A stretch of 64,000 nucleotides of DNA from Hormiphora californensis (GCA_020137815.1 CM035359.1:6572001-6636000), one strand, 5' to 3'. Numbered from the stretch's first letter, positions 17,131 to 33,694 are shown. The notes: generated by a model from the sequence alone, not told the origin. A program made the numbers and translations.

Positions 17131-20100
17131 ATGGAGGTTGATTTCTATTTCCACGGTTCAATCGACCGTGAGACAGCGGAGTGTCGGCTCATGTTGTACA
17201 GCAACAAGGATGGGACCTTCCTTATCCGGTCGAAAGATGAAGAGAATTATGTGATTAGTGTTTGGTATAATCGCCGTATCGCTCACTATCTTATAATAAA
17301 AGAGGTACATCCATACATGTTAACTTTTATGATTTCAAAAACGTTTCAAAAACCTAACATAACCACATCCACAGCCGGACGGGTCAATCAAGTGGGATGC
17401 AGAACGGACCTATGACGACATAGAGGAGCTGATAGCAGCCCACAAGGTCTTCAGGAATGGAATGATTACTGAACTTACTTTGGGGTGCCCTGTGAAGGAA
17501 TTTGTCGTACAGGACTCCCTGTTCGCAGGTCACGAGGTTGGTAATTCCTGTTTAATCACTCTGTAATCACTATGTGTGATCATCCTAATTATCCTTTGGT
17601 GTCTATTTACCTACACATACTTTATCTCCTCTCTCTCTGCAGTGTTCTGGACTATGTTGGTTTCACGGCTCACTCTCCCCTGAGGAAATACAGCTACGTT
17701 TAGCTGTCGTTGAACCGACCAACGGTGCATTTCTTATTATCAAGGGACCTACAACTCTTTACCAAATCAGTATATGGATCGAAGGAAAGGTATTTGATAA
17801 ATGATATTTGTAAAAGTACTTGTGATTTCATAATTTGTAGAGATGATATCTCTACCAGGCGTCAATCAAGATGGTCAAAGGAAAAACACGGTGATTTTAT
17901 TGTTGTAATTTCTTTTGAATCTCAATATTTTTACACGCCCGCCCCCAGGTGATAGCCCACGACATAATAGAATACGATAACAAACAGTTGTTTATAAGTC
18001 CGTCAGATAGGTTTTACAATCTACTAGACCTCATCAGGTTCTATAAGGGAAACGACATTTTGGGTAAGTGTATATAACAAGGCAATATATGTGTTGCCAT
18101 GTAGTTCGAATTAGTGTAGCCTAAGCTGAATTCGGCTTGAATTAGTGTGTACATTACATACATAGTGTCATATTCAACTATTGTTGAACAATTGTAGAAA
18201 TAAATAAAACTGGCACGAAAAATGCACTTTTAGTTCAGTTTTAAATCGTAATAGTTCGATTATAATAATCTGTTATTCCTCTATACCAGGACACAATCTA
18301 ACCCGACCGTGTTGTGTATCTGTATGGCAACAGAGAGGACATCTCTCCCACCCCCCACAAATCCTTGCCAGTTTGGCGTAAGTTTTCGAGAAAACCCAAT
18401 CAATGAAATATCATGTTACCTTCTTGGTTGATATCTCAAACACTTTTTTTCCTTTTTTCCGACGTCAGCGCGGCTATTTCTCGATCCATCTCACACACTT
18501 TTGATAGTGATTATTCCATTCTAACAGGACTGCAGGTGGTTTCTGTAGCGATTCAGATGATGATGGGAGAGGTAAAATAACAAGGAAACTGGCATTTAAA
18601 GCGAGAAGGAGGGCTAACGTGGATGATCTTGTTGATCTGTGAGTTGTTTTACCTTATAAGCTACGGGTTTTTACCTTATAAGGAGTCTTACCTTATAATT
18701 AGGAGCTTTATCTTGTATGGAGCAAATGCCGAATAATGTGCAAAATAGTTTTACCTTTTTACCAAACCGGCATGCACATGTCATTAGATAGTCAAATTGT
18801 TAGTACACATCCCACAAAACTATAACATGTACAGAAACACGTCACGGTCAATTTGAAATACCCCAGATGTTGCGATATTTCACACACCACTGTGAAGAGT
18901 AGCTGTAATTTTAACTTTGCTTCGTTAGCACAGTATGTGAAGTAAATATTTCATGTTGTCATCATATATCAGTTAGCTCATAGGGTGACACGTTTCTCAT
19001 TCGACACAAAATGAGAGCCCCTAAATTGTGAGTTAAAACCCAATTGTCTCAACATGCAATTATTCGACGCATTCATTATGCACAGTGTGCATTGTGCAAT
19101 GTGCAGTGTGCACACATATGTTTGTTGCAGGCTGGGCTGTACCATTATTTTGTACGTCACTTTACTTCCTTCACACCTACAACAACACACACCCATGTGC
19201 CGTGTGCAAAACACACATTCACAGTGTGCACAGTACACATACACAGTGTGCATAGTACATATAATTATTCAAGAAAACACAGTGACTTATGGGGCATTGC
19301 CACCACAGTTGAATTTCATTCGAATGGCTCATTTCCCCAATACAATAAGCATGGACTCAATAAATAGTTTTACGTTGTCGTTGATGAAAGTTTGAATGTC
19401 ATACTAGTATATCTCGTACAATTGGGGCATGTAACGGTTATAGGATGCATGAACCAATGCAATTACGCACATGATACTGTTTTGGTAGATCCGTCATTCG
19501 AGTTGCTACTTCCCTCCAGAATCACTGTCATGGATATATGACTGTTCATTAAGTTTAGGAAGTTGAGATCTGTGTTATGATTTGTGACGTGAGAAAGAGA
19601 GGGAGAGAGTGAGAGAGAGAGAGAGAGAGAGAGAGAGAGAGAGAGTGAGAGAGTGAGAGAGAGAGAGAGAGAGAGTCAGAGAGACATAAAACATATCCTG
19701 TGATCCGTCAAAGCTCATCTACTCAACAAATTGTTTACCAGACAAAACCCAGTAAACACCGAGATAACTACTTATTATACCCTAATACGGCGACGGCCAT
19801 AACCATATATGGAGTGAACATATACTGTTTATGTGCGTATTATATATCCGACATAATCAGCTATCACTGTTGTAGGAGGTGTTAAAATTGTATACACAAA
19901 TGGGATAAAGGGAATGAGGATTGTCTTACAACTGTCGTATTCATCTATCATTCATCTCTTTCGACTATCTCTCTTTATGTTCAATTCGTTTTCATATCTA
20001 TCGTAATTCCGTCTTCGCCAACTTTTTATCTCTATAACATATAATCTTTCCAAGTTCTCTTTTGACAAAATCACTGTGCGTGTGTAGTTCATATATAGAC

Positions 20101-33694: not shown

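Follow-up and report, generated by a model that had tools for sequence, protein, structure and literature searches.

A conserved tandem-SH2 pseudokinase of ctenophores, likely derived from Syk, is a candidate non-catalytic phosphotyrosine adaptor

Syk and ZAP-70 bind doubly phosphorylated ITAMs via two SH2 domains and a helical linker (PMC8605373), kinase-independent functions are known for ZAP-70 (PMC3215182), and the earliest Syk-like proteins have been reported from sponges (PMC13344425, PMC3670263). Loss of the HRD and DFG motifs within a tyrosine-kinase fold has been described for EphB6, EphA10, HER3, PTK7, ROR1/2, RYK and STYK1, for which scaffold roles are presumed (PMC13259870, PMC7586955). 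The tyrosine pseudokinases that we found described were receptors or the JAK JH2 domain. Here we analyze a gene of the ctenophore Hormiphora californensis in a window of 64,000 nucleotides (GCA_020137815.1 CM035359.1:6572001-6636000; the window is the whole stretch, and positions are counted from its first letter). The reading that we favor, with moderate confidence, is that the gene encodes a conserved ctenophore pseudokinase, likely derived from Syk, that would serve as a non-catalytic adaptor or scaffold and dock to a single phosphotyrosine via its N-terminal SH2 domain (N-SH2).

Splicing of the 16 exons by their coordinates (Table 1) yields 2019 nt, that is, 672 amino acids and a TAA stop codon. 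GT-AG borders were found at all 15 introns, the reading phases chain, and 13 of the 16 exons have a single open frame, which confirms the intact 16-exon frame proposed in an earlier note on this DNA; the independent splice model and that of the note had the same total length. The motifs quoted there were also all found at the expected places, namely LGDGLISKV, VAIK, LRALSCRN (24910-24933), KLSIYST (24961-24981), RWIPKD, and VVWSFG. When all 16 exons were searched singly against Pfam, 10 had no match; SH2 matches were obtained for exon 1 (E = 4.6e-12) and exon 3 (E = 0.13), PK_Tyr_Ser-Thr matches for exon 12 (E = 0.009), exon 13 (E = 1.5e-4) and exon 14 (E = 0.041), and exon 4 alone gave only a weak DUF match. 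The best PDB matches of the SH2 domain in exon 1 were ZAP-70/Syk. The borders of exon 10 are identical in the genomic fragment P0153, and the alignment with the orthologues described below spans the model from end to end, exons 15 and 16 on the far side of the 7.8-kb intron 14 included. An upstream coding exon was considered and rejected: although the open frame extends some codons further in the upstream direction, the same Met starts three of the four full-length proteins, so that no such exon is needed. No other kinase exons were found within the 64,000-nt window, and a weak SH2-like tblastn match near 62.3 kb was not confirmed by a profile search.

Table 1. Exons of the Syk-like gene and other features of the window
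Feature	Position	Strand	Content	Support or remark
Exon 1	17131..17304	+	start Met; N-SH2 through betaD with intact pTyr pocket	intron 1 spliced in X2
N-SH2 pocket (exon 1)	17164-17181; 17218-17232		Arg alphaA2 in DRETAE; Arg betaB5 in FLIRS; His betaD4	
Exon 2	17375..17536	+	end of N-SH2; short inter-SH2 linker	
Exon 3	17643..17789	+	first half of C-SH2; alphaA2 Arg to Pro; betaB5 Arg to Ile (FLIIKG 17730-17747)	aligned to Syk C-SH2 FLIRA
Exon 4	17949..18063	+	second half of C-SH2	
Exon 5	18290..18377	+	end of C-SH2 (invariant PCCV..W); start of linker	orthologue alignment
Exon 6	18528..18638	+	linker	X1 contig joins to exon 7
Exon 7	22111..22241	+	linker with acidic, Ser-rich stretches	
Exon 8	22979..23097	+	invariant basic linker motif, core 23011-23067	intron 8 spliced in X2
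Exon 9	23217..23314	+	linker	
Exon 10	23562..23680	+	second basic motif RRNAGEKK; start of kinase N-lobe	
Exon 11	23781..23921	+	Gly loop; VAIK (23831-23842); truncated alphaC without Glu	
Exon 12	24434..24515	+	gatekeeper Thr; hinge	Pfam
Exon 13	24828..25005	+	degraded catalytic loop LRALSCRN; IYS in place of DFG	Pfam, PDB alignments
Exon 14	25424..25540	+	shortened activation segment; no APE, no alphaF Asp	
Exon 15	33317..33411	+	kinase C-lobe	orthologue alignment
Exon 16	33553..33694	+	alphaI; C-terminal helical extension (LD.I.KAY.W); stop codon	
92-nt repeat	25512-25671		repeat directly after the exon-14 donor, followed by the duplicated exon end and donor	high-copy in RNA contigs
Tandem duplication	33054-33346		three copies of the exon-15 acceptor (33103, 33258, 33317)	last copy alone stays open
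ORF in intron 14	27231-28034	+	267 aa, coiled coil	no convincing Pfam family
ORF in intron 14	28224-29354	-	single exon, 367 aa from first Met, seven hydrophobic segments	no Pfam match
Inverted repeats in intron 14	29545-31727		nested; 177 nt at 95%, 132 nt at 97%, others	foldback/MITE-like
ORF fragment	31931-32389	-	152 aa	no Pfam match
Receptor gene	5329-8621	-	intronless, LDLa repeats, rhodopsin type; three ORFs in different frames	
Penelope-like fragments	56792-59475		GIY-YIG match and RT-like ORF	GIY-YIG E=5e-4

The borders of the long intron 14 carry local duplications. The two upstream copies of the exon-15 acceptor were rejected, as both lead to stops. About 28 nt of the end of exon 14, together with its donor, are duplicated behind the 92-nt repeat, and this second donor (25660) was rejected, as read-through runs into a stop. 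The intron itself harbors several further elements. The 367-aa ORF on the strand opposite to the gene probably encodes a divergent GPCR, the coiled-coil ORF presumably resembles a LINE ORF1-type protein, and we take the 152-aa fragment to resemble pieces of Polinton-like elements. Elsewhere in the window, the rhodopsin-type receptor, which we assume to be LGR/GRL101-like, is broken up by frameshifts or assembly errors.

RNA contigs from three runs (X1, X2, and X3) were compared with the regions 16900-18800 and 21950-25700, a comparison that reports presence only. Intron 1 (70 nt) and intron 8 (119 nt) are missing from X2 contigs, and in one contig of X1 exon 6 runs directly into exon 7, with the 3.5 kb of intron 6 removed. 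Spliced transcripts are therefore present, with 3 of the 15 introns removed in contigs of depth 3-6 from two studies and two of the three runs. In these data, which do not speak for absence, the junctions between kinase exons had no contig cover within 21950-25700 and X3 contigs had no match to exons in the compared regions, while intron 15 and the acceptor of intron 14 lie outside these regions. The three listed exonic substitutions between RNA and window were all synonymous, and three further differences occurred in the same contig pieces.

A search with exon 1 found P0001, a Bolinopsis microptera protein labeled 'tyrosine-protein kinase SYK-like' (XP_063688769.1), and P0002. The P0001 cluster also contains a complete protein, P0005, and a third full-length orthologue, P0160, was reached via another short fragment. 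The identities to the window model over the aligned positions were 54% (P0005), 51% (P0002) and 40% (P0160), and none of the three proteins contains HRD or DFG. From their orthology, we infer that P0002 and P0160 are ctenophore proteins as well. All counts out of four given below refer to the window model and these three full-length orthologues. A profile search against 1.84 billion representatives revealed at least 13 short fragments of the same gene among the best 150 matches listed, and the remaining matches among these 150 were SH2 and kinase proteins of other kinds. A gene model of Pleurobrachia bachei (P0018) is nearly letter-for-letter identical to exons 2-3 and 5-6. A word-index search with exon 13 gave no match, and no orthologous locus was found in two metagenome scans. 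The Bolinopsis RefSeq isoforms P0001 and P0003 end early and lack the conserved C-terminal helix of P0005, and in isoform X1 the degraded activation segment is interrupted by an insert of 14 aa.

The conservation is unevenly distributed over the protein. N-SH2 is the most conserved domain, with 46% invariant positions (45 of 98), compared with 28-36% in the kinase lobes and 20% in the linker. The same catalytic losses are found in orthologues that are 40-54% identical, and therefore the gene encodes an old, conserved pseudokinase and not a decaying copy. It could be argued that the gene is decaying neutrally or that the model is an annotation artefact, given that RNA supports only 3 of 15 junctions and that the Pleurobrachia model is partial and skips exon 4; yet the open frames, the identical lesions in orthologues down to 40% identity, and the domain-specific conservation speak against this explanation, which has already been largely refuted by the full-length orthologues and to which we give next to no credence.

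To what extent a kinase domain has been retained was assessed by a motif census of the four full-length orthologues and of 98 further SH2 proteins with a single kinase domain that the searches had returned. The alphaC Glu and the alphaF Asp were absent from all four orthologues and present in all 98 comparison kinases, whereas the HRD Asp, the DFG Asp and the APE Glu were each found in none of the four and in 96 of the 98. Thus, the replacement of all five elements, described before for the window alone, extends to all full-length orthologues. The first two glycines of the Gly loop, the beta3 Lys, and the Arg between alphaH and alphaI were kept in all four. The catalytic loop reads LRALSCRN in three orthologues and LYSIACKH in P0160, and two exon fragments have LRALSCKH and LRALSCKN. 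Because of this variation (LYSIACKH, LRALSCKH), the Asn of the loop is not invariant: it is present in three of the four full-length proteins and lost in P0160 and P0032. The segment from DFG to alphaF comprises 29-30 aa, compared with 36-45 aa in the comparison kinases, and an invariant YS/FS-T-x-R stands where DFG would be. The statement that VAIK remains holds for the window, and its Lys for all four orthologues, but beta3 Ala is replaced by Val in P0160, the most distant orthologue, in which the motif reads VVLK; therefore, ATP binding is probably not conserved. On the other hand, all four retain the beta3 Lys and the glycines of the Gly loop, so that the pseudokinase domain may still bind a nucleotide or have an allosteric role. 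The established roles of the missing motifs lead us to infer that catalysis was lost. An atypical kinase that stays active by means of non-canonical residues would fit the four-fold retention of the beta3 Lys and of two Gly-loop glycines and the catalytic-loop Asn in three of four proteins, and weak activity is kept by some pseudokinases (PMC3215182). However, such an enzyme is very improbable, as the catalytic base and the metal-binding Asp are gone and the alignment shows no acidic residue that could compensate for them; moreover, P0160 and P0032 lack the Asn, and P0160 has Val for the beta3 Ala.

The kinase fold, by contrast with the catalytic residues, is kept. Pfam PF07714 matched three orthologues with E=1e-23 to 1e-26. 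An AlphaFold model of P0002, computed from an 88-sequence alignment dominated by active kinases (mean pLDDT 71.7, pTM 0.52), shows both SH2 domains and the kinase fold with confidence; no alphaC helix was built, and the activation segment has low confidence. Foldseek searches with this model retrieved full-length Syk and ZAP-70 first (E ~1e-23 to 1e-25), with Csk next (1.5e-18). A search with just the kinase domain left FAK, Syk, Csk, and Abl tied at Z ~24, and the superpositions with FAK and Syk (VIA Z ~24) had an rmsd of 2.4-2.7 over 230-239 residues. No pseudokinase was singled out in a wide fold search, and the ESM Atlas returned generic kinase clusters only.

Pseudokinase domains that regulate active kinases allosterically exist in the JAK JH2 domain and in HER3. 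In the same way, the domain described here could bind an active tyrosine kinase and switch it on or off, with N-SH2 providing recruitment. This possibility draws on the retained fold, on the conserved Gly loop, beta3 Lys and hinge, and on the new invariant YS/FS-T-x-R in place of DFG. However, the elements that usually serve as conformational switches are deleted, namely the helix alphaC and the greater part of the activation segment, and the kinase lobes are less conserved than N-SH2, so that we regard allosteric regulation as rather unlikely. The favored adaptor reading places the weight on N-SH2 instead.

Indeed, N-SH2 has Arg alphaA2, Arg betaB5 and His betaD4 in all four orthologues. The situation is different in the C-terminal SH2 domain (C-SH2), in which position betaB5 is Ile or Thr in all four proteins and alphaA2 is never Arg (Lys in two). 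Elsewhere, the betaB5 Arg was found in 21 of 21 C-SH2 domains of Syk, 18 of 19 of SHARK, 3 of 3 of short-linker proteins, and in 54 of 55 single SH2 domains. In addition, the inter-SH2 linker comprises 19 aa in all four orthologues, compared with 55-69 aa in 21 Syk-type proteins, and it is a low-confidence coil in the P0002 model. Hence the assumption that the gene encodes a functional tandem-SH2 module of the Syk type is not supported: with a C-SH2 devoid of Arg betaB5 and a 19-aa linker, Syk-style bivalent ITAM binding is unlikely. A short linker alone is not unique, as three active tandem-SH2 kinases (P0059, P0112, and P0134, one of them a named Styela clava ZAP-70-like protein) have inter-SH2 linkers of 13-23 aa; these represent an independent loss of the helical linker. 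Six residues that flank the short linker (Cys96, His111, Cys113, Cys117, Cys207, and Cys208; window 17375-18377, model aa 96-208) are invariant in all four orthologues, and this set might form a putative metal or disulfide clasp that replaces the lost helical linker. Pfam and profile searches found no ankyrin repeats between the SH2 domains, and the four full-length orthologues consist of SH2-SH2-kinase only, with neither a FERM domain nor a second kinase domain.

These features also bear on the earlier proposal of an adaptor or decoy, of which the adaptor is probably the correct half, with the N-SH2 pocket intact in all four orthologues. A competitive decoy would occupy phosphorylated receptor tails and block an active Syk or SHARK, a role for which an intact Syk-like N-SH2 on a protein predicted to be inactive appears suited. 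But a protein that binds ITAMs bivalently depends on both of its SH2 pockets and on the helical linker (PMC8605373). As these prerequisites are lost here, the ctenophore protein would compete poorly; moreover, the invariant linker motif and the conserved C-terminal helix would be superfluous in a pure decoy. With the ITAM decoy weakened in this way, we consider this explanation unlikely and retain the monovalent adaptor.

The SH2-kinase linker of about 200 aa is variable except for one stretch, residues 318-342 (LETHNTLSRKGSNRIKRKSMEKAQR), the basic motif LETHNTLSRKGSNRIKRKSMEK of exon 8, in which 18 of 25 positions are invariant in the four orthologues. This conservation equals that of the N-SH2 pocket and exceeds that of every kinase window. 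The second half of the motif is predicted as a helix in the AlphaFold model of P0002, and a predicted complex of the motif with the pseudokinase domain had a score of 0.02, too low to speak for or against contact. Two Ser residues lie in R[KR]GS and KRKS, which we take to be basophilic-kinase-type sites by their consensus; the same R[KR]GS/KRKS motif is also NLS-like. The second basic motif (RRNAGEKK) is conserved in all four proteins, and the C-terminal helix (LD.I.KAY.W) is conserved as well. Tyr291 of the linker is not conserved in P0160, and therefore a Syk-like role of the linker in phosphotyrosine docking is doubtful. Alternatively, the protein might be a nuclear shuttle, in which the basic motifs would act as nuclear localization signals masked by Ser phosphorylation and a phosphotyrosine partner would be carried to the nucleus. 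Lys and Arg make up 29% of residues 320-395, and two basic motifs are conserved in all four orthologues, as such a shuttle would predict; the invariant non-basic residues (LE.HNTLS), however, are more in keeping with a specific binding motif than with a nuclear localization signal, and we judge the shuttle to be quite improbable. Allosteric regulator, decoy, and shuttle are not fully exclusive.

What selection has preserved is one phosphotyrosine reader, two domains that are folded but inactive, and a short linear motif; a monovalent adaptor regulated at the serines of the linker would account for this most simply. For the preferred adaptor, the following scheme can be proposed. An active tyrosine kinase would phosphorylate a receptor tail or an adaptor, to which N-SH2 would recruit the pseudokinase monovalently. 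The pseudokinase domain would not perform phosphotransfer; rather, the Arg-less C-SH2, the pseudokinase domain and the C-terminal helix would offer phosphorylation-independent surfaces that bring in effectors, and the linker motif with R[KR]GS and KRKS would be a Ser-phosphorylation switch for binding or localization. Binding of partners without phosphotyrosine has been described for the Arg-less SH2 domains of TYK2 (PMC5394478) and Spt6 (PMC3507883).

The ancestry was addressed with kinase classes labeled by domain architecture, 'Src/Csk/Abl-like' and 'JAK-like' being our own reading. In a FastTree analysis of 102 kinase domains, the orthologues were nested in the Syk clade beside four long-branch Syks, a result set aside as long-branch attraction. 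The later trees comprised 45 of the 102 rows and 4 added domains, after removal of redundant rows, of three outgroup rows with long branches, and of the four long-branch Syks; no FAK, Tec, Fer, or receptor kinase was knowingly included. In free mixture-model trees, the pseudokinases were unplaced, with a stem of ~4.3 substitutions per site, and a tree that forced the orthologues together with Syk was 7.5 lnL better and was not rejected (p-AU 0.69). The clade was then tried on each of the 87 branches of a fixed reference (LG+F+G4). The kinase domain alone gave weights of 0.73 for Syk, 0.21 for SHARK and 0.05 for JAK, and placements with the single-SH2 kinases were rejected (p-AU at most 0.017). 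When the kinase domain was combined with both SH2 domains, the best branch was the Syk stem (0.48), with totals of 0.84 for Syk, 0.08 for SHARK, and 0.07 for JAK; SHARK (p-AU 0.27) and JAK were not rejected. Single-SH2 kinases were preferred when the placement was based on only C-SH2 or on only the two SH2 domains (weights 0.79 and 0.77, respectively), the Syk stem not being rejected in either case, and placement of N-SH2 alone gave no preference that is informative for ancestry. Judging from these sequence comparisons, a Syk origin of the ctenophore pseudokinase is probable. Of the initial classification as Syk/ZAP-70-like, the SH2-SH2-kinase architecture without ankyrin repeats stands, and Syk is the favored placement (weight 0.84); the distinction from SHARK and JAK is not secured by rejection. 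Tentatively, and with considerable doubt, it can further be proposed that the protein is the ctenophore orthologue of Syk itself and that ctenophores have no active Syk, an ITAM-reading kinase having been turned early in the phylum into a kinase-dead adaptor for a single phosphotyrosine with a new Ser switch. If so, signaling from immune, wound or phagocytic receptors would proceed in comb jellies without the catalytic step of Syk on which other animals rely.

A ctenophore Syk-like pseudokinase is apparently undescribed: no description was found in the full-text literature searched, with subscription journals mostly outside its coverage, and a term search of the main text of a holozoan tyrosine kinome survey found no mention of ctenophores (PMC8662651). 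Nor did the searches of this literature find a case of a whole cytoplasmic Syk-type kinase that became a pseudokinase and was kept across deeply diverged ctenophores. As the RefSeq label is 'SYK-like', gene inventories would count the protein as an active Syk. A further protein, P0102 (594 aa), has the Syk-type SH2-SH2-kinase order with YRNLSSQN for HRD, DFS for DFG and both SH2 arginines kept, and is possibly an independent Syk pseudokinase.

Among the described systems, Syk and ZAP-70 share with the ctenophore protein the order SH2-SH2-kinase without ankyrin repeats, and they provide the best sequence and fold matches and, with the Syk stem, the best placement. In contrast to them, the ctenophore protein has no catalytic residues, a shortened activation segment without the YY pair, no Arg betaB5 in C-SH2, an inter-SH2 linker of 19 instead of 55-69 aa, and an SH2-kinase linker of ~200 aa with its own invariant basic motif, as well as a C-terminal helical extension. 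SHARK (SH2-ANK-SH2-kinase) likewise has two SH2 domains and a related kinase domain (p-AU 0.27), but the ctenophore protein is devoid of ankyrin repeats and predicted to be inactive, and the placement weight is 0.08 for SHARK versus 0.84 for Syk. In JAKs, notably in TYK2, whose SH2 domain lacks its Arg (PMC5394478), an SH2 domain that binds without phosphotyrosine is also followed by a tyrosine pseudokinase domain; unlike JAKs (weight 0.07), the ctenophore protein has neither a FERM domain nor an active kinase in the same chain and has an additional, intact N-SH2. The receptor tyrosine pseudokinases combine a kinase fold with HRD/DFG loss as well, but they are membrane receptors, whereas the ctenophore protein is putatively cytoplasmic and has SH2 domains; furthermore, the alphaF Asp, which is lost in the ctenophore protein, is kept by all eight human proteins of the published table (PMC7586955, Table 1). 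Finally, the tunicate short-linker ZAP-70-like kinases, such as Styela clava XP_039268901.1, resemble the ctenophore protein in having an inter-SH2 linker cut to 13-23 aa in the group, but HRD, DFG, and the arginines of both SH2 domains are intact in them, and they are not its sister group in the best placement.
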